From: Candidatus Saccharimonadota bacterium
GTDB lineage: Bacteria; Patescibacteriota; Saccharimonadia; Saccharimonadales; Saccharimonadaceae
Length of the DNA: 64,000 nt
NCBI GenBank assembly: GCA_017405265.1
Contig: JAFRAS010000007.1
Coordinates: forward strand, 3,524 to 67,523
Reading direction: 5' to 3'
How positions within the stretch are numbered: the stretch's first letter is position 1; each line of letters starts with the position of its first letter. Position numbers and translations under genes: made by a program. Positions 1,782 to 62,273 of the stretch are shown here, one piece after another. Below the pieces are notes generated by a model. It was not told the origin of the DNA, searched no databases, and worked only from the letters and a program-made list of their open reading frames with translations.

Positions 1782-1947
1782 GGGAAGTTCTTAAAACTCG
1801 CTTTTCTGCAGTTATAAAAAATAATCATTTAAAAATTTCTTGAAACAGGTCGAGTACGTGATAGTCCACGGCGCAGACCTGCCTTGAAAGAAATTTTTAA
1901 ATAGATTATTTTTTATAGGCAAAGAAAAAGAGTTTTAAGAACTTCCC
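1782..1947. repeat. 166-bp imperfect palindrome, family A (MITE/REP-like)
   Basis: GGGAAGTTCTTAAAACTC...GAGTTTTAAGAACTTCCC with pairing continuing to the centre. Confidence 0.9.
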
Positions 1948-5155: not shown

Positions 5156-5429
5156 ATTAATCTCTTGATGTGATAAAATATAAGCGAACCCACTGCGCGG
5201 CGAGCATTCACCTACCGCAAAGGGTTCCCTTTTTATGTCAATATCGCTTTTCTGAAGAGGTACGAAAAACTACTTTTTATCTCTCAAAGAAGTCGCACTC
5301 GGGAAGTTTTTCAAAGCGCAAAGCATTTACTATTTCGAACAGTGTAAATTTTTTGCCTATTTCAATTTTTTCGCGGGACAGGTCAGGTATAGAAGCGCAG
5401 AGAAAACTGCTTTTCGCAGCATGAGCAGG

Positions 5430-5600
5430 GGGAAGCTCCTAAACTCTTTTCTTTACGGTATTCCGATTTGTTTTATGTAAAAAATACAGCAGACGCTACG
5501 TTTCAAAATTACGCAGTTTAAAAATTTTGAAACTAGCCCGGATGCTGTATTTTTTACAATAAAACAAGTCGCGTAAAGAAAAGAGCTTTAGGAACTTCCC
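5430..5600. repeat. 171-bp imperfect palindrome with family A-like ends
   Basis: GGGAAGCTCCTAAACTCTTTTCTTTACG...CGTAAAGAAAAGAGCTTTAGGAACTTCCC. Confidence 0.85.
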
Positions 5601-24521: not shown

Positions 24522-24557
24522 TTTCCCACATTTTTATATTTGTGCTATAATTTGCTT

Positions 24558-25562
24558 ATGATTCTTTTCGACTCCGTTTCGAAATTCTATCCGGGCGACC
24601 AGCACCCCGCTCTTTTCGATGTCTCTCTCCACATCGCACCGAACGAGTTCGTTTTCTTGGTCGGGAAGTCCGGTGCCGGAAAATCGACCTTAATGAAACT
24701 GATTACGAAAGAAGAGCGCCAAAGCTCCGGCAAAATCATCATCGGCGGCATCGACCTCGACTACGTCAAAAAGCGCAACATCCCCCACTACCGCCGTCGC
24801 CTCGGCGTCGTGTTTCAGGATTTCAAACTTCTCCCCCGTCGCACCGTTTTCGAAAACGTCTCCTTCGCCTTAGAGATCGCCGGGATGAGCGGCCGCGAAA
24901 TTCGCCGCACCGTCCCGAAAGTCCTCGACCTCGTGGGACTCTTAGAACAAGCCAACAAATACCCTGACCAACTCTCCGGTGGCCAACAGCAGCGCGTCTC
25001 AATTGCCCGCTCCGTCGCCCGCCAGCCGAAAATCCTGATTGCCGACGAGCCGACCGGAAATTTGGATAAGCTGACCCGCCGCGAGATCGTCGACCTCTTG
25101 AAACGCATCAACGATTTCGGCACCACCGTCCTCGTCACGACCCACGACGAAAACATCGTGAACCTGTTGCAAAAACGCGTCATCACGATTAAAGACGGCC
25201 GCGTCGTCTCGGATCAAAAAGAAAACGGTGTCTATCGCCTCGGCACCGAGCCGAAAATCCAGCCCGTCGGCATTAACTTCTCGAGCAAGACGGGGAAGAA
25301 AACTGGCGAAAAAGCCGACCTCGACAAAGAACCGATAAAGTCCTATAACCCCGCTCGCCCGAACCCCTTCGCCATCCGCGACCGCGCCCGCGTGACAAAA
25401 GTCCCGAAACACGACGTAAAAAATACCACCGACGGCATGATTCCGCGTCGCGCTCCGCGCCCGCTGAAAGTCGCCGAAGAAACTCCAGTAAAGCCCGCCG
25501 CCGCCTTCTTCAACCGTCGCCACGCCCCCGCGAAGAAAAAGGAGATGAAGAATGGCAAATAA
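24558..25562 (+). CDS. ftsE: Cell division ATPase FtsE with C-terminal extension
   Basis: GKSGAGKST, VVFQDFKLL, LSGGQQQR, ADEPTGNLD; adjacent to ftsX. Confidence 0.94.
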   Translation: MILFDSVSKFYPGDQHPALFDVSLHIAPNEFVFLVGKSGAGKSTLMKLITKEERQSSGKIIIGGIDLDYVKKRNIPHYRRRLGVVFQDFKLLPRRTVFENVSFALEIAGMSGREIRRTVPKVLDLVGLLEQANKYPDQLSGGQQQRVSIARSVARQPKILIADEPTGNLDKLTRREIVDLLKRINDFGTTVLVTTHDENIVNLLQKRVITIKDGRVVSDQKENGVYRLGTEPKIQPVGINFSSKTGKKTGEKADLDKEPIKSYNPARPNPFAIRDRARVTKVPKHDVKNTTDGMIPRRAPRPLKVAEETPVKPAAAFFNRRHAPAKKKEMKNGK

Positions 25563-26644: not shown

Positions 26645-26953
26645 ATGCGTGAAGCCATGACCGCGAATATCAACGTTCGCACCACCCCAAAGCTCAAGGC
26701 AAAAAGCCAGAAACTTTTTGAGGATTGGGGGCTCGACACCTCCACGGCCATCAATATGTTTTTAAAAGATTGTGTCCGCGAAAAATCCTTGCCTTTCCGC
26801 TTCACTCGGGAAGAAGCTCGTTATGTTCCGAACGCTGAGACGGTCGAGGCACTTAAAGAAGCCAAAGAAATTTCGAAAGACAAAAACGCGGTGGGCTATA
26901 CTAATATGAAAGATTTTGTGAGTGCCCTCCATGACGAAGTTAAAAAAGCCTAA
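26645..26953 (+). CDS. dinJ: RelB/DinJ antitoxin
   Basis: INVR..LK....F...GLD.STAINMFL.......LPF, PNAETVEALKE. Confidence 0.9.
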   Translation: MREAMTANINVRTTPKLKAKSQKLFEDWGLDTSTAINMFLKDCVREKSLPFRFTREEARYVPNAETVEALKEAKEISKDKNAVGYTNMKDFVSALHDEVKKA

Positions 26954-27254
26954 TTTTTTCGACGCATCAGACCTAAAATACGAAATTAGACCTACAAAGC
27001 AATTCATAAAGGACTATAAAAAGGCTCTCCTCCGCGGAAAGAAAGAGAAGAAAATACTCGATGTAATTTTTACACTCGCCAAGGGCGAAAAATTACCTCT
27101 GAAATTTCGCGAGCATAAGCTCGCTGGTGAGTATAGCGATTATTTCGAGTGTCACATCGAACCGGACTGGCTGTTGGTCTATTATCTCGAGGAAAATCAC
27201 CTCGTTCTCGTGCTCGCCCGCACCGGCTCCCATTCCGACCTTTTTGGAAAGTAG
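26922..27254 (+). CDS. yafQ: YafQ-family mRNA interferase toxin (start could be ATG 26931)
   Basis: F.KDYK, EHKLAG, ECHIEPDWLLVY, RTGSHSDLF. Confidence 0.93.
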   Translation: MPSMTKLKKPNFFDASDLKYEIRPTKQFIKDYKKALLRGKKEKKILDVIFTLAKGEKLPLKFREHKLAGEYSDYFECHIEPDWLLVYYLEENHLVLVLARTGSHSDLFGK

Positions 27255-32303: not shown

Positions 32304-34719
32304 TCTGAAACGCACTATTCTTCTGGCCTTAATTTTTGCGATTTTCTTAACTTCCTCCTTCGATGTCGCCCTGACTCTCGAACTCTTCGGCTTCACCTTC
32401 CGCCTGACCCAACTTCTGTCAATTGTTTTAATGTTAATAATTGGAATTCAAATTATTATCAAACGTCGCGTCGAAAAGCCTCTGGGTCTAAGATATCTTA
32501 TTTTCTGGATAATCCTATTATTACTCTTTACGTTTAATACAATTTTACCGAAAACGAACTTAGCTTACGACGCCTGGGCAGTTTTCAACGTTGCCCTCGT
32601 CTTCGCCTTCGTGAACCTCCCGCGCGAAAAACTCCTTTTCCACGAAGTTTTGCGTCTCTATATCTTCTCCTTCCTCGTCATGGCGCTTTTTGGCATCCTC
32701 GAATTCATCTTGGGTGCTGCCGGCACCAACTTCCCCTACATTACTCAGTGGTGGAGCGCGACCCTCCCCCGCGTGAACGGCCTCTGTTTTGAGCCGTCCT
32801 ATTTCTCGTCTTACATGCTGATCGGCTGGGCGCTGACTCGCTACCTGATTCACAAAAAATACCCCTTCGCCCGCCACCCCTATCTCATTCTTGTCGCTAT
32901 CGTCCTCTCACTCGCCCTCTCTTCTTCTCGGATGGGTCTTCTCGTGATGACTATTTTTGAACTCATCTTCGGTGTTGTCTCTGTCATCCGCACGAAAAAA
33001 CCGCTCCTCCCGCTTGCGAGTTTCGTCATAACCGTCGCCCTCGCCTTCGGTCTGCCTTACCTTAACGCACGTATCTTCACACCTTCTGGCGGCGAATCCG
33101 CCGAGGAATCTTTCTCTCGCATCATGGACGGCACTGGCATCGGCGGCACCTCCTCGCACTCCTCCGCCGAGCGTATCGACTCCCTGAAGGACACCCTCGC
33201 CGTCTTCCTCGACTCCCCGATTTTGGGTCGCGGTTTTGGCGGCACTTTCGTCGAAATTGCCAAAAAACACGACCTCGACCCCGCGAAAATCTCTCTGCAG
33301 GATGAAGCAGGCAGTATGAACATCACCGCCGAAATTCTCGCCGCCACCGGCATTTTCGGCTTTATCGCCCTTCTTTTCTATCTCGCCGCTCTCTATTCCT
33401 CTCCTCGTCGCCTTTCCGCCGCGCATAAAACCGCCAGCAATTCTCTCGCTCCTTTGAAAGGTCTCCTCTTCGCCCTCCTCATCACCCTCATCATGTTCCA
33501 ACTGAACCAGAACCCCCTCCGTCCCTACATCTGGCTACTTATTGCGATGGTTTCCTACGCTTACGCGACTTTGAATGCCACTCTCCCCCCGAAAAAACAC
33601 CCGAAAATCGCCGTTGACGCCCGAATGCTAAAAATGTCCGGCATCGGCACCTATCTTAAAAATCTCGTTAAAAATGGTTGTTACGACCTCACTCTCGGCG
33701 CCCCCGAGCCGACCGGACTAAAAAACATCCCCTATAACGCTAATATATACGGCATAAAAGAACAGCTAAAATTCCCATATCTTAAACTCTGGCGCGAAAA
33801 CCCCGCCCTCCTCCACTGCCCGCACTACAACATTCCGCTTTTCTACTCCGGAACTCTCGTCACGACCGTCCACGACCTGACCCACCTAAAATACCCCGAA
33901 TTTTTACCTAACAAATTCGGCTACCTCTACGCCCGTTTCATGCTCGGCCGCGCCGTAAAAAAATCCACTCTCGTCCTCACCGTCTCCGAGAACACGAAAA
34001 AAGATATTCTCGAGTATTACCACGTCAACCCTGACAAGATTATTGTGATTCCGAACGGCGTCTCGATAGATTTTAAGCGCTTGCGCAAGGAAGGAACTTT
34101 TGCGACAACGTGCGACGACGTGGAGCACATTAGCGACGAGCCGCGTAACGACGCGCGCGAGGAGCATGTCGCAAAAGTTTCTTCCTTGGGTAGCAAGCGC
34201 GTATTATTGTATGTCGGGAATCTGAAGCCGCACAAGAATCTCAAAAATCTCTTGAAGGCCTTCGCAAAACTCGAAAACCGCGACGATTTGACCTTGCGTC
34301 TCGTCGGCAAATCTTTCGATAATTACAACATTCTCGACAAATTGCCAAAAAAGTTAGGAATTGAGAAAAATCTCGAAATCCTGGGCGAAAAATCCTCCGA
34401 CGAACTCGTAAAAATCTATAATGAAGCCGACCTCTTCATCTTCCCGTCTCTCTACGAAGGCTTCGGCCTCCCCATTCTCGAATCTCTCCGCTGCGGCACT
34501 CCCGTCGTCTGCTCGAACACTTCCTCCCTTCCCGAAGTCGGCGCTGACCTCGTCTCCTACTTCGACCCCACCTCCCCCTCCGACATGGCGCGCGTCATCT
34601 CCGCCCACCTCGACGACAAACTCACCTTCGACTACCAAAAAGCCAAAAAACACTGCGACGCCTTCTCTTGGAAATCTTCCGTTGAGAAAACAAAATCTGC
34701 TTTTAGAGAAGCGCTTTAG
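32290..34719 (+). CDS. O-antigen ligase/polymerase-like membrane domain fused to GT4 glycosyltransferase
   Basis: About 12 TM with R.NGL.FEPS, SSR.G, PILGRGFG; then DARM..SGIGTY, PHKN, YEGFGLPILE. Confidence 0.85.
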   Translation: MKSFNLKRTILLALIFAIFLTSSFDVALTLELFGFTFRLTQLLSIVLMLIIGIQIIIKRRVEKPLGLRYLIFWIILLLLFTFNTILPKTNLAYDAWAVFNVALVFAFVNLPREKLLFHEVLRLYIFSFLVMALFGILEFILGAAGTNFPYITQWWSATLPRVNGLCFEPSYFSSYMLIGWALTRYLIHKKYPFARHPYLILVAIVLSLALSSSRMGLLVMTIFELIFGVVSVIRTKKPLLPLASFVITVALAFGLPYLNARIFTPSGGESAEESFSRIMDGTGIGGTSSHSSAERIDSLKDTLAVFLDSPILGRGFGGTFVEIAKKHDLDPAKISLQDEAGSMNITAEILAATGIFGFIALLFYLAALYSSPRRLSAAHKTASNSLAPLKGLLFALLITLIMFQLNQNPLRPYIWLLIAMVSYAYATLNATLPPKKHPKIAVDARMLKMSGIGTYLKNLVKNGCYDLTLGAPEPTGLKNIPYNANIYGIKEQLKFPYLKLWRENPALLHCPHYNIPLFYSGTLVTTVHDLTHLKYPEFLPNKFGYLYARFMLGRAVKKSTLVLTVSENTKKDILEYYHVNPDKIIVIPNGVSIDFKRLRKEGTFATTCDDVEHISDEPRNDAREEHVAKVSSLGSKRVLLYVGNLKPHKNLKNLLKAFAKLENRDDLTLRLVGKSFDNYNILDKLPKKLGIEKNLEILGEKSSDELVKIYNEADLFIFPSLYEGFGLPILESLRCGTPVVCSNTSSLPEVGADLVSYFDPTSPSDMARVISAHLDDKLTFDYQKAKKHCDAFSWKSSVEKTKSAFREAL
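34077..34200. repeat. Intragenic coding palindrome, divergent family B copy
   Basis: CAAGGAAGGAACTTTTGCGACA / TGTCGCAAAAGTTTCTTCCTTG arms; core GACAACG..CATTAGCG..CGT(A/G)ACGACG..TGTC. Confidence 0.85.
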
Positions 34720-34882
34720 AGGAGAGGACTTCTTTCGAGTCTCGCTCTTTAAGATTCGCGACGGGAAAATGTATATTCCTGACGGACCCGACAGGTTCGT
34801 CCCGAAGGGACGGTTCTGTCGGCGTCCCAGCGTATGACATTTTCCCGAGCGAGTCGCGTAGCGAGAGAGAAGTCCTCTCCTC
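34719..34882. repeat. 164-bp intergenic imperfect palindrome
   Basis: GAGGAGAGGACTTCT/AGAAGTCCTCTCCTC, CGGGAAAATGT/ACATTTTCCCG, apex CGTCCC-GAA-GGGACG. Confidence 0.88.
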
Positions 34883-34911
34883 AAACAGAAGTGTGTTATA
34901 ATAAAGGTATT

Positions 34912-48964: not shown

Positions 48965-49011
48965 TTATACCACACTTTCCATTTTTTGTCAACTGATGCT
49001 ATAATTTTCTT

Positions 49012-49713
49012 ATGAAATCTAAAGAAGAGCCCACCTCCCGCCACCAGGATGCTACGGTCCCCGCAGACTACCCCTATAACAAGCGCCCGAACCCCCTCGA
49101 GAGACTAATTTACTTCCTCCTCTTCCTCTACGCGAAATTTCACCTAAAATTCATCTTGAAAACCACTGTAAAAAACAAGAAAATCCTCCCGAAAAACTCC
49201 CCCTTCTTCCTCTACGCGAACCACACCCAACCCCTCGGCGACCCCTTCCTCGCCGTCACTCTGTTCTACCCGAACACCCCCCGCGTCCTCGTCTCCCCGG
49301 CGAACCTCGGGATTCCTTTCATCGGCCGCTTTCTCCACCTCGCCGCCCTCCCCATCCCGAGCGACTTGAAAACCCTGAAGCGCTTCAATCGCGCTTTGAA
49401 AGACGCTTACGAAACCAATCACCCCATCATCATCTTCCCCGAGGCCCACGTCCTCCCTTATTGCCCGATCATCCGCGAAATCTCCGAAAAATCCTTCCGC
49501 CCCGCCGCGAAACTCCGCTCCGACGTTTACGTCATGACCACGACCTACAAAAAGCCCAAATTCGGCAAAAAACCGAGAATTATCGTCCACCTCGACGGCC
49601 CCCTCTCCCCCGACCCTGCCAAAACCGCCTCTGAAAACGCCTCCTTCCTCTGCACCACTACCCTCAAAACCCTCCACTCTCGCACCAAAAACAATTACAT
49701 CTATTACCCATGA
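49012..49713 (+). CDS. PlsC-like glycerolipid acyltransferase
   Basis: ANHTQPLGD and IFPE blocks. Confidence 0.78.
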   Translation: MKSKEEPTSRHQDATVPADYPYNKRPNPLERLIYFLLFLYAKFHLKFILKTTVKNKKILPKNSPFFLYANHTQPLGDPFLAVTLFYPNTPRVLVSPANLGIPFIGRFLHLAALPIPSDLKTLKRFNRALKDAYETNHPIIIFPEAHVLPYCPIIREISEKSFRPAAKLRSDVYVMTTTYKKPKFGKKPRIIVHLDGPLSPDPAKTASENASFLCTTTLKTLHSRTKNNYIYYP

Positions 49714-50176: not shown

Positions 50177-50226
50177 CCCTCATTATATCAAACATTAAGC
50201 GCTTTGTCAATAGTCAAGGCCAAAAG

Positions 50227-50392
50227 AAGCTCCGAGAAAACTGCTTTTTCGCTGTTATGAAAAAACTCTCTATTTTGAAATTTTTGCGAAACAAGCCGAG
50301 TACGCGACAGTCCGCGACGCAGGCTTGACTTGAGCAAAAATTTCAAAGAGAGATTTTTTCATAGGCGAGAAAAAGTAGTTTTCTCGGAGCTT
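50227..50392. repeat. 166-bp imperfect palindrome, family A
   Basis: AAGCTCCGAGAAAAC...GTTTTCTCGGAGCTT; core alignable to 1782-1947. Confidence 0.9.
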
Positions 50393-50416
50393 TTACAAAT
50401 GTGCTATAATAAACTT

Positions 50417-51610
50417 ATGTTTATCCGCCGAAACCACAAAAACCGCGAAAACCTCGAAACTCGCAAAAAACACCTAAAAGGTGACACTTTAGTCGAAGTC
50501 ATGCTCGCCATGGCCGTCTTCGGCGCGGTGATTATTTCGACCGTCAGCATCATGAACCACGGCCTCCAATCCGCCGAAGCCACCCTCGAGGACTCCATGG
50601 CCCGAAACGCCATCGACGTCCAAGCCGAATCCCTCCGTTTCGTCGCCGAAGTTTACACCGCCGAAATCCGCGTTGACCCGACGAAATACGAATACGCCGC
50701 CGTCTGGAAATACATCACCGACCACGCCGTCGCCCCCGCCGAATTCGAAGCAAAATACCGCTACGGCTCCCTGACCTGCACCGATTATTACGACGACTCC
50801 GAGCTAAACTCCGAATCCTCGAAGGTCAAGGCCGGCGAAAGCTTCGTCCTGAACCCCCACAAACTCGATAAAACCTCCGCCCACGACGCCATCTCTTACT
50901 TCTCCACCGGCGCCGACGAGTCAAAAGTCAAAAAAATCGTCATTCCATCGAAAGACAACGACAATTTTATCCCCGCCGACACCTACCCTCGCCTCATTTT
51001 CGACTCCGATTTGAACGCCAACTTGATCGACGAGGGAACAAGAGAATCCGTGAGCCAGGTCGCCGGCCTCTGGGTCACCGCCGTCTGCGACAGCACCGGC
51101 GTCGTCGGCAACCGTTGCAACGCTTACAATGTCACCAACGCCCCAAAATACTACGATTTCTACATCCGCACCTGTTGGACCCCGCCCGGCTCCGACTTTG
51201 CCACCACCATCGGCACCACCATCCGCCTGAAAAACCCTGCCATCACCGCCAGCACCACCGGCTCCGGCGTCGTCACCCCGACCGTTTACAACATCACCTA
51301 CGATTTCAACGGCGGCCGCTTTGAGACTGAACTCGAAACCACCTTCTCCGACATCGCCTCCACTCTCGCCGGCGGCTCTCTGAATGTCCGTGCTCTCTCC
51401 GACCTCACCTACCGCGCCCACCTCTCTCTGAACTACTGGACGACGAACGCCGACGGCTCCGGCACCCGTTACTACCCTGGCTCCTCTATTACCCCGCCCG
51501 ACAACATGACCCTCTACGCCCAGTGGCGCGACGTTACCTGCGCCGACTACCGCGCCGACCCCTCCCTTACCCTCCCCGACGGCCTAACTTGCGACGAGGA
51601 GGACTCCTAA
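50417..51610 (+). CDS. Type IV pilin-like protein with C-terminal InlB B-type repeat
   Basis: KG|DTLVEVMLAMAVFG prepilin motif; ITYDFNGG..WTTNADGSGT.Y..G....N.TLYAQW. Confidence 0.85.
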   Translation: MFIRRNHKNRENLETRKKHLKGDTLVEVMLAMAVFGAVIISTVSIMNHGLQSAEATLEDSMARNAIDVQAESLRFVAEVYTAEIRVDPTKYEYAAVWKYITDHAVAPAEFEAKYRYGSLTCTDYYDDSELNSESSKVKAGESFVLNPHKLDKTSAHDAISYFSTGADESKVKKIVIPSKDNDNFIPADTYPRLIFDSDLNANLIDEGTRESVSQVAGLWVTAVCDSTGVVGNRCNAYNVTNAPKYYDFYIRTCWTPPGSDFATTIGTTIRLKNPAITASTTGSGVVTPTVYNITYDFNGGRFETELETTFSDIASTLAGGSLNVRALSDLTYRAHLSLNYWTTNADGSGTRYYPGSSITPPDNMTLYAQWRDVTCADYRADPSLTLPDGLTCDEEDS

Positions 51611-53504: not shown

Positions 53505-53582
53505 CGAAATTAGCGACGCTTTGGCGTCGCGTTTTTTACGAAGTAAAAAACGGGCTTTTGCCCCGCAGAAGCCCTAATTTCG

Positions 53583-53645
53583 TGGAAGGGCGCGAAGCGA
53601 TACATCTTTTTCGAAGAAAAAGATGTTAGAGCGAGCGACCTACCA
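53583..53645. repeat. 63-bp family D repeat
   Basis: Flanks identical to the 1579/1659 copies; central hairpin ACATCTTTTTC-GAA-GAAAAAGATGT. Confidence 0.9.
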
Positions 53646-60300: not shown

Positions 60301-60527
60301 CCGGCCTCCCGAAAGAAGAAGTCGTCGCCTATCTTGAGACTGCGAAATATTGGGACGAAATCGCGAGCTACGACCCGACCACTCGCTACCAATTCGACGA
60401 AGCCCCGACTCCCGCCGCCATCTTCTTCGAATCGACCTCCCTCATCGCCGACCTCGAGCCCGAATTTGCTAAAAAGTTGAAAGAAGTCGTTTACCAAGAG
60501 ACGCGTTATCGCAATTTTGCCGCCTAA
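57387..60527 (+). CDS. Large hypothetical membrane-anchored protein
   Basis: About 1046 aa, charged N-terminus, TM near aa 125-145; start after TGCTATAAT. Confidence 0.75.
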   Translation: MADDYDDENLEQEDGEGRSNLYNAAQSEWLAEATGKKSASRELTAGANPENENKKSLASRDARDTFLNAEKSAERGGRLKKTAERAETATSYVSNVKGKGATETATVNGKKGKNGKKKAGLRGKKGVLVVIVILLVVFAGTSFISQSFQGFSFSQNVILKKDTSSAVIEDRLKDILAYQLNPSDEAIAMEQEMGTRNYELSDYMLELFAEHNLVVIPTTLADGTTVRVLAYQEPSTNTIAAVTKTTADRAELMTALAAQTGSSVVSLDTNLNVFGVADASAATSLEDSYFEVARIIANSSWHDATSDAYVKRLGQDRTKYNADAYDADKTAIQKSEQNKRLTEQGTMSSDSNSSDECEQTIVHYGTQVQVGTDEETGEPIYETEETGTQTTKVCKKINKKTGEETVEETVTPETPPPGSPIPGRTEHSKVPESLFDEDLVKEREQYEGTEYTTYVEDALIERLTKVAAQNQNIGTWVTVLLTGNIDRDCAAAKAATSTNAVVYSIRRAQSVNAASSYLIAIQKAQAGDGGTEMNYYQNLANIPVTQTDDSGNTTKKAMTESDAFNTYFSDDYFVSEDDPFVYDYSTEKTLHTAFDSGATSADAYKYCTNENKQAIHYTDIAGLLSSSQKSDFTEEFESAGKASDFTADIWAAIRDAIGWNDTVKRVIDNASPEINKALQNDPLTDFGGENTAVAINNGIDFYVAGQLRQTSGTFGNESEVIATYTKVNERIARTATYDQRNLSPFDTSSNYTFLGSLLTTLTPVASHLHSFSSFLSSAASTVSSSFFNIIPSASALTADQTAKLAATLKHDCYFSADDSVDMVATVECVNIPAHNMTHINTPYEEIVTKMKDGGYITDDLKPVAESEYDYWLHYCTQSESAINNYDFSFMEPTKNNLNKVDEDYGFLRTKKSCGGNHEKTDLYALFSQFTLDNRIIALANGTGYSTVAAYLNDYYVEHPIDESYEGLISRYSGLPKEEVVAYLETAKYWDEIASYDPTTRYQFDEAPTPAAIFFESTSLIADLEPEFAKKLKEVVYQETRYRNFAA

Positions 60528-60834: not shown

Positions 60835-62273
<1,439 letters not shown>

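Follow-up and report, generated by a model that had tools for sequence, protein, structure and literature searches.

The genomes of Saccharibacteria are among the smallest and most compact of any bacteria, yet one genus accommodates 166-bp palindromes by the dozen, and even essential genes contain some of them. Two such palindromes lie in a 64,000-nt stretch of a Candidatus Saccharimonadota genome (assembly GCA_017405265.1, contig JAFRAS010000007.1, positions 3,524 to 67,523), which we refer to as the window. Their paired bases differ and their unpaired bases are the same, and they raise the question of what has been maintained: an RNA structure, a signal that is useful to the host, or a DNA element that multiplies for its own sake. 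We examined the source genome (G000; Ca. Nanosyncoccus, Saccharibacteria; 519 kb in 8 contigs, completeness 85.6%) together with a sample of 150 genomes of the same genus and an outgroup sample of 149 genomes that represent 119 further genera of the order. All coordinates given below are those of the window unless a contig is named.

Results

Anatomy of the family A hairpin

The two complete window copies of the repeat, which we call family A, were delimited by arm-against-arm alignment, and this analysis confirmed the positions, the common length of 166 nt and the core sequences reported in a first-pass annotation of the window. Copy 1 (1782-1947, + strand) is an imperfect hairpin that scored 99.4 bits with covariance model R1 and consists of outer arms, a mid-stem loop, inner AT-rich arms and an apical core. 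The core (1846-1881, +) reads CAGGTC / GAGTA / CGTG / loop ATAGTC / CACG / GCGCA / GACCTG. Copy 2 (50227-50392, +) has stems unlike those of copy 1 and identical unpaired motifs; its core (50292-50327, +) reads CAAGCC / GAGTA / CGCG / ACAGTC / CGCG / ACGCA / GGCTTG.

Folding predicted that each family A copy forms one long hairpin. The tip is a 6-nt loop, AYRGTC in G000, and below it are a 4-bp stem, a symmetric 5x5 internal loop in which GAGYA lies opposite GCGCA, and a 6-bp stem. This stem is followed by a two-base bulge, two base pairs and tandem G·A / A·G pairs. The lower part of the hairpin comprises an AT-rich stem of ~30 bp, an asymmetric mid-stem loop and an outer stem of ~25 bp. The median length of 59 distinct elements was 168 nt, with an interquartile range of 160-176 nt.

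Two further long hairpins of the window, unrelated to family A in their central sequence or throughout, are close to it in length (~166-170 nt), and both are single-copy in G000. The 5430 element (5428-5597, ~170 nt) has the terminal arms of copy 1 (GGGAAGYTCYTAAA..CTC..TTTTC) around an unrelated centre, and the 34719 element (34719-34884, 166 nt) has a different, GC-rich sequence. Abutting the 5430 element is the truncated left half of a short-stem family A variant (TTTTTGCCTATTTCAATTTTTTCGCGGGACAGGTC...; 5350-5420, +) followed by a solo outer-arm segment.

Copy number and distribution

Copies in G000 were identified by combining BLAST, a motif scan and covariance model R1. The family A core was present 11 times, dispersed over five contigs in both orientations, and every copy was intergenic. 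Seven copies were full-length and collinear (alignment A1) and one was cut by a contig end. Three identical copies represented a variant with different stems; all three were at contig ends, evidently because the repeat broke the assembly. Outer and inner stem types were recombined among the G000 copies.

We then determined how widely the family occurs. When the genus sample was scanned with R1, the core was found in 27 of the 150 genomes (~18%) at 1-9 copies each, so that most sampled genomes of the genus were without family A and G000 exceeded all of them. The covariance-model scan suggested by the first-pass annotation thus yielded additional copies both within the genome and beyond it. In the outgroup sample R1 found the core in 0 of 149 genomes. 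A strict exact pattern searched over 185,579 species matched 52 stretches, 51 of which were from Saccharibacteria / Nanosyncoccus metagenome-assembled genomes; those with a named sample came from the gut of goat, sheep, roe deer and yak. A loose core pattern run over all species genomes gave chance matches only, in GC-rich genomes, and was dropped. The Rfam search returned no family at the gathering threshold other than the two tRNAs of the window, and at E values of up to 10 it returned just long hairpins resembling miRNA precursors, far below their thresholds. Full-text literature searches did not turn up any publication on repeats of this kind in Saccharibacteria. We conclude that the window palindromes belong to a genuine, previously undescribed family of DNA repeats of ruminant-gut Saccharibacteria that form hairpins.

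Covariation and conserved motifs

The first-pass annotation had claimed that the unpaired bases are kept and that the paired ones swap together. We found this to be the case well beyond the two window copies. In nine distinct G000 copies, 98.4% of the cells were paired and 16 of the 28 pairs had changed on both sides. None of 500 shuffles reached these pairing and two-sided values, and slid controls were 33-54% paired. In 44 copies from relatives, 95.9% of the cells were paired and 25 of the 28 pairs had changed on both sides; the stems varied at nearly every position, and one-sided changes were almost absent. The unpaired motif C-GA-G-Y-A-C / G-G-C-G-C-A-G was invariant or nearly so in these 44 copies, which at the level of single positions applied to G36, A37, G38, C41 and G96-G102. 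Gene conversion between the two arms, which had been raised as a possible explanation of the covariation, cannot by itself explain the conserved asymmetric loops.

Many relatives carried a second motif in the mid-stem loop; its left side reads ATTGAGCGAaCCC and its right side G(a/g)CG(t/c)GA(a/g)GCGAAGC. Among 16 elements that were scorable with an overly strict regular expression, the tip and mid-stem motifs were in direct orientation in 15 and flipped in 1.

Filled and empty sites

Comparison of orthologous loci, which had been proposed as a check, identified filled and empty sites at valS, an sbcB-like gene and the rpmA-FBA spacer. The valS gene of relative G020 encodes 61 extra residues, 56 of which are specified by a 169-nt hairpin; the same site is also occupied by a copy in relatives G019 and G134, and the valS gene of G000 is without the segment. 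Both arms of the insert belong to the DNA that is extra relative to the empty ortholog, and therefore neither arm was copied from the target. The possibility of target-derived arms was rejected on this basis. The sbcB-like gene of G020 also contains a copy that is absent from G000. With a third gene, gatA, relatives thus carry copies in frame inside valS, the sbcB-like gene and gatA, and one further copy is antisense within another open reading frame.

At the gatA site, G020 has a hairpin with the family A core (L013), and G000 has a different coding hairpin, designated family B (61544-61656). Both tips contain CGAGCA...GGCGC, and the two families may therefore form a superfamily or have a hotspot in common. 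ARAGORN called a tRNA-SeC in the same region (61313-61405, - strand), 139 nt upstream of the coding hairpin; this call had no Rfam support and is probably a false positive.

The spacer from rpmA to FBA is 195 nt in G000 and filled by the element. Relatives G030 and G032 have a spacer of 57-75 nt that is occupied by a standard intrinsic terminator and a promoter, and in G022 only a plain terminator lies directly 3' of rpmA.

Evidence for dispersal came from relative G169, which contained 9 near-identical copies with different flanks (including L207, L211, L217, L148 and L169). These copies also share an extra, non-palindromic left segment of 45 nt (ATACATACGAAAGCGGATACCGACGGGAAAAGGGGAAG...), and therefore the unit that multiplied in G169 is ~212 nt long and asymmetric. 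Metagenome contigs of the same species as G000 carried identical copies at the two window sites, with no presence/absence polymorphism, and therefore movement has not been recent here. One apparent strain difference among these contigs was a scaffold gap inside another copy.

Promoters, terminators and a possible role for the host

Each of the long palindromes had been described as lying just upstream of a promoter, and this held for all four window elements. The consensus promoter of a downstream 52-aa gene (1961-1989, +; TTGACA-17-TATAAT, 12/12, with TG before the -10 box) starts 14 nt after copy 1. Copy 2 is flanked by two divergent promoters: a leftward consensus promoter (50182-50210, -; 12/12) is 17 nt from its left end, and TGTGCTATAAT occurs ~6 nt beyond the copy on the other side. 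The 5430 element ends 13 nt before a -35 box and the 34719 element ~12 nt before a -10 box. The strong promoters are all outside the repeat, and the only match inside an element arm was a weak one of 9/12.

The description did not hold as a general rule. One G000 copy is situated between convergent genes (the dnaK side and ackA), and in relatives 10 of 22 intergenic copies were between convergent genes compared with a background of 17.7% (p = 0.002, or 0.008 when likely orthologues were collapsed); in a second sample the count was 11 of 35. Median spacers were 15 nt for tandem, 40 nt for convergent and 96 nt for divergent genes, and with spacers this small any tolerated insertion lands beside a promoter. 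Promoter adjacency is therefore a local effect that holds in the window. A better generalization is that the copies are at the 3' ends of genes, where they often replace the terminator.

This arrangement would be expected if the hairpin were useful to the host, whatever its origin, as an orientation-independent terminator, an insulator or a stabilizer of mRNA 3' ends comparable to SPRITE or ERIC. The rpmA-FBA element is exactly at the position of the intrinsic terminator of relatives, the rplK stop codon is within an element arm with the metK promoter directly after it, and at both the rpmA and rplK copies no other terminator is left. The enrichment between convergent genes fits such a role, as does the restriction of the stems to Watson-Crick pairs, which is expected if both transcripts must fold. 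However, there was no T-run after the stem on either strand, and a terminator scan that did flag the tRNA-Ala terminator and other hairpins flagged neither window copy of family A. Moreover, the in-frame copies in valS, sbcB and gatA cannot be terminators, the family is missing from most genomes of the genus, and termination leaves the invariant asymmetric loops unexplained, as well as the orientation with respect to replication that is described below. A host function as the reason for the family is thus rather unlikely, whereas a secondary role as a terminator substitute at some sites is plausible.

DNA or RNA hairpin

An RNA helix tolerates G·U pairs and does not tolerate A·C pairs. We therefore compared the two types of mismatch in unbiased arm-against-arm alignments; minimum-energy folds were dropped as a basis for the count because they ran into the flanks and because the energy model favours G·U. 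The alignments contained 77 G·T plus T·G and 90 A·C plus C·A mismatches. In the model alignment the corresponding values were 18 (1.6%) and 14 (1.2%), with 1075 Watson-Crick cells. In neither kind of alignment were wobble pairs overrepresented on one strand or the other.

Orientation of the elements provided a second line of evidence. We take the strand that bears the conserved motifs as the sense strand. In a first sample it was the C-rich one for 27 of 31 copies, and in a second for 44 of 52, or for 33 of 36 where |skew| >= 0.1. With respect to transcription of the flanking or enclosing genes, 11 elements had the same sense and 14 the opposite one. All 14 of the latter still had a C-rich sense strand, 4 of them with |skew| <= 0.1, so that the strand polarity of family A is separable from transcription. 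Within G000 just 6-7 of the 11 copies fit the strand rule, and the exceptions were all at contig ends.

GC skew in G000 is exceptionally strong (|0.2-0.3|), uniform along contigs C2-C7 and independent of the local gene strand. It is inverted relative to the usual G-rich leading strand, in that the S10 ribosomal operon and most genes are on the C-rich strand. There was no switch in skew at dnaA (contig C2, ~51 kb), and the origin could not be placed from this gene. Because the S10 operon and most genes are on the C-rich strand, that strand is probably the leading-strand sequence and hence the lagging-strand template. Judged by gene orientation, the sense strand of family A is thus probably the lagging-strand template. 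The predicted DNA hairpin of the sense strand was slightly but consistently more stable than that of its complement (42 of 59 elements, p = 2e-5).

Taken together, the mismatch spectrum, the orientation by skew and the in-frame coding copies argue for DNA rather than RNA as the level at which the hairpin acts, and a DNA hairpin with templated arm-to-arm correction fits the data better than an RNA structure. The claim that the structure is under selection was consequently upheld in part. The loops are the only portion of family A with clear sequence selection. In the stems, what is kept is Watson-Crick complementarity, with no wobble excess and with orientation that follows skew instead of transcription.

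These results bear directly on the possibility that family A is a structured non-coding RNA, either a small RNA or a cis-regulatory element, whose loops bind a protein or ligand and whose stems are selected at the RNA level. The very strong covariation and the invariant unpaired motifs are what such an RNA would display, RNA motifs typically contain tandem G·A pairs and internal loops rich in purines, and of 44 copies 25 had U·G and 17 had C-G at the pair Y34:G50. In contrast, wobble pairs were as rare as A·C mismatches, Rfam contained no match, with generic miRNA models of long hairpins far below threshold, and no promoter drives the element. The mixture of senses relative to flanking genes, the presence of in-frame copies in reading frames on either strand and the tracking of GC skew are likewise contrary to an RNA family. 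We regard this explanation as improbable and a dedicated RNA function as unlikely, although the transcribed hairpin may have some RNA-level role, for example in termination or RNase III processing.

Trans-acting enzymes

A gene encoding an HUH transposase, TnpA or a reverse transcriptase had been suggested as a potential trans-acting factor. We carried out six-frame searches of five element-rich genomes (G000, G169, G128, G089 and G161), whose assemblies are 78-99% complete, three of them 98-99%. No Y1_Tnp (RAYT / IS200), TnpB, DDE_Tnp_1 (IS4-type), rve or DDE_3 (IS630-type) domain was found in any of the five. For Y1_Tnp (PF01797) the control genomes gave matches. The annotation's statement that the window contains no transposase therefore extends to the whole genome for the families searched. 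Xer-like recombinases, at one or two per genome, were the sole type of recombinase found. A search for SbcD gave no match at the family cut-off, which would help explain how long palindromes survive.

Reverse transcriptases were present, including two in G000 on contig C8 (L206; 86-3081 and 13723-17157), a contig almost without GC skew. Both are near proteins with Fib_succ_major domains, the usual layout of diversity-generating retroelements. These two loci are probably such retroelements, and reverse transcriptases were rejected as the trans factor for that reason.

The transposase searches are most relevant to the explanation that family A is an ordinary MITE mobilized in trans; the transposase would then be absent from the assemblies, be carried by a phage or plasmid, or be of a family other than those searched. 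The entire 166-nt unit is an inverted repeat and, like a MITE, has terminal inverted repeats and a size below ~300 bp, as any such palindrome trivially would. Dispersed copies, a patchy distribution among species, the 9 near-identical copies of G169 and an insertion into another element are all consistent with this explanation, and G000 is only 85.6% complete. It is disfavoured by the failure to find a parent transposase domain in the five genomes, by conservation that is at the tip and loops instead of the termini, and by the lack of target-site duplications at the ends of the G000 copies, whose boundaries are fuzzy by a few bases. In addition, neither of two core patterns was found in IMG/VR viral contigs. 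On balance a conventional MITE has only a small probability, similar to that of an RNA family.

Palindromes generated passively by local fold-back errors of replication, with no transfer of sequence between sites, would account for stems that differ between sites and for the failure to find a transposase, but they are very improbable given ~14 identical unpaired letters and a length of ~166 nt at dozens of unrelated loci, two extra arms at valS and 9 near-identical full copies in G169.

Discussion

The explanation that we favour is that family A consists of lineage-specific, non-autonomous palindromic DNA repeats that are probably selfish, resemble the palindromic elements of Rickettsia (RPEs) and act through the folding of one replication strand into a single-stranded DNA hairpin. 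The stems are almost free to change in sequence so long as the arms stay Watson-Crick complementary, and the features kept on one strand are a few unpaired, purine-rich motifs: the apical 5x5 loop (C-GAGYA-C / G-GCGCA-G), the tandem G·A pairs below it and the mid-stem loop. The whole hairpin is gained as a block and, according to this model, persists where the harm is slight, namely at gene 3' ends where it replaces terminators, in convergent spacers, upstream of promoters and in frame in variable protein linkers. The sense strand would fold when it becomes single-stranded at the replication fork, and the conserved tip would either be recognized by a host factor or nucleate the fold. The arms would stay complementary because template switching or repair inside the hairpin corrects them, as opposed to slow compensatory mutation.

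A bolder version of the model, which we consider possible though unlikely, is that the hairpin multiplies via the replication fork and has no transposase at all: it would fold on the lagging-strand template, a host protein of replication or repair would recognize its invariant purine-rich tip, and its arms would be rewritten by copying within the hairpin. If true, this version would explain the hypervariable yet paired stems, the length of ~166 nt and the orientation set by replication. In a related reading, the host would have co-opted the polar hairpins as replication-linked signals.

Among known systems the RPEs are the closest analogue of family A. RPE-1 to RPE-10 are palindromic repeats of ~150 bp in the reduced genome of an obligately host-dependent bacterium; they are found in intergenic positions and in frame in unrelated housekeeping genes, with no known transposase and no obvious target duplications (PMC10969869). 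Family A is of similar length, likewise belongs to a reduced genome of an obligately host-dependent bacterium, and shares the combination of in-frame and intergenic placement and the lack of a known transposase and of visible target duplications, a likeness of behaviour only. The two lineages are unrelated, and so, probably, are the sequences; family A may also differ in its hypervariable stems, its conserved tip and internal loops and its replication-strand orientation. Furthermore, the copies of G000 are purely intergenic, and the in-frame copies are those of relatives. Since family A was confined in our samples to one genus of Saccharibacteria, common descent with the RPEs is unlikely.

Correia elements of Neisseria, ERIC and SPRITE are small palindromic repeats that lie by promoters or gene 3' ends and whose transcripts fold into long hairpins, and some of them function as a promoter, as an RNase III site or in a terminator-like manner (PMC10969869). 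Promoter boxes and an IHF site are part of the Correia element itself, and SPRITE carries a terminator-like sequence (PMC10969869). Family A is likewise a small palindromic repeat beside promoters or gene 3' ends whose transcript would fold into a long hairpin. In contrast to Correia elements, family A has its strong promoters outside the repeat and no target duplication was seen; unlike in SPRITE, no terminator-like sequence was detected.

REP and REPIN sequences are extragenic hairpin repeats, the latter doublets of REPs of 20-40 nt, that are moved by RAYT (Y1 HUH) transposases. They are thought to act as single-stranded DNA hairpins and are often at gene 3' ends and between convergent genes. 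Family A resembles them in forming hairpins, in its preference for gene 3' ends and convergent spacers and in the proposed single-stranded DNA hairpin, but it is a single hairpin of 166 nt with no conserved GTAG-type 5' motif and has in-frame copies, and we found no Y1_Tnp domain in five genomes that carry it.

Integron attC sites provide a further parallel. In these sites structure is conserved over sequence, particular unpaired bases are kept, and one functional strand folds as single-stranded DNA; they form same-oriented arrays next to intI and have R''/L''-L'/R' boxes and a variable tip. Family A likewise combines conserved structure and unpaired bases with one strand that is proposed to be functional. 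Unlike attC sites, its copies are single, dispersed and in both orientations, the tip is conserved, and there is no consensus of R or L boxes.

The data set assembled here comprises >60 copies in which the stems are saturated with paired changes and ~14 unpaired bases are nearly invariant. It offers a way to test how palindromic repeats that lack a transposase, for instance the RPEs, come about and proliferate and what keeps their two arms matched. The repeats also have practical consequences, as they break assemblies, can pass for structured RNAs when covariation is screened and insert additional peptide segments into conserved proteins.

Minor repeats

Several smaller repeats were noted during this work. 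A short hairpin at 1728-1765 contains outer-arm sequence of family A only (GGGAAGCTCCGAGAAAA-AGTAG-TTTTCTCTGCGCTTC); it has either arisen by deletion from a longer copy or is a small repeat in its own right. Solo outer-arm hairpins with perfect stems of 14-15 bp (GAAGCTCCGAGAAAA-loop-TTTTCTCGGAGCTTC) are present on contig C2 of G000 at 26952-26984 and 60488-60520. One of these is between two divergent promoters, and both are possible target sites or deletion remnants.

Repeat family D7 (24522-24561, 48976-49015, 50381-50420 and others) has the form TGTGCTATAAT-N6-ATG, which corresponds to an extended -10 promoter. With a promoter so near the start codon, many genes are probably leaderless.

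Inspection of the tRNA genes revealed an 80-nt unit that follows tRNA-Ala as two tandem copies and tRNA-Glu as one copy (1542-1721 and 53546-53645) and that also occurs at ~1860-1935 of contig C1 of G000. The unit has the form GGCGCGAAGCGA ... GAGCGAGCGA around a small covarying hairpin, and these motifs are the mid-stem loop motifs of the family A copies of relatives in reversed order. The number of units varied between metagenome contigs of the same species.
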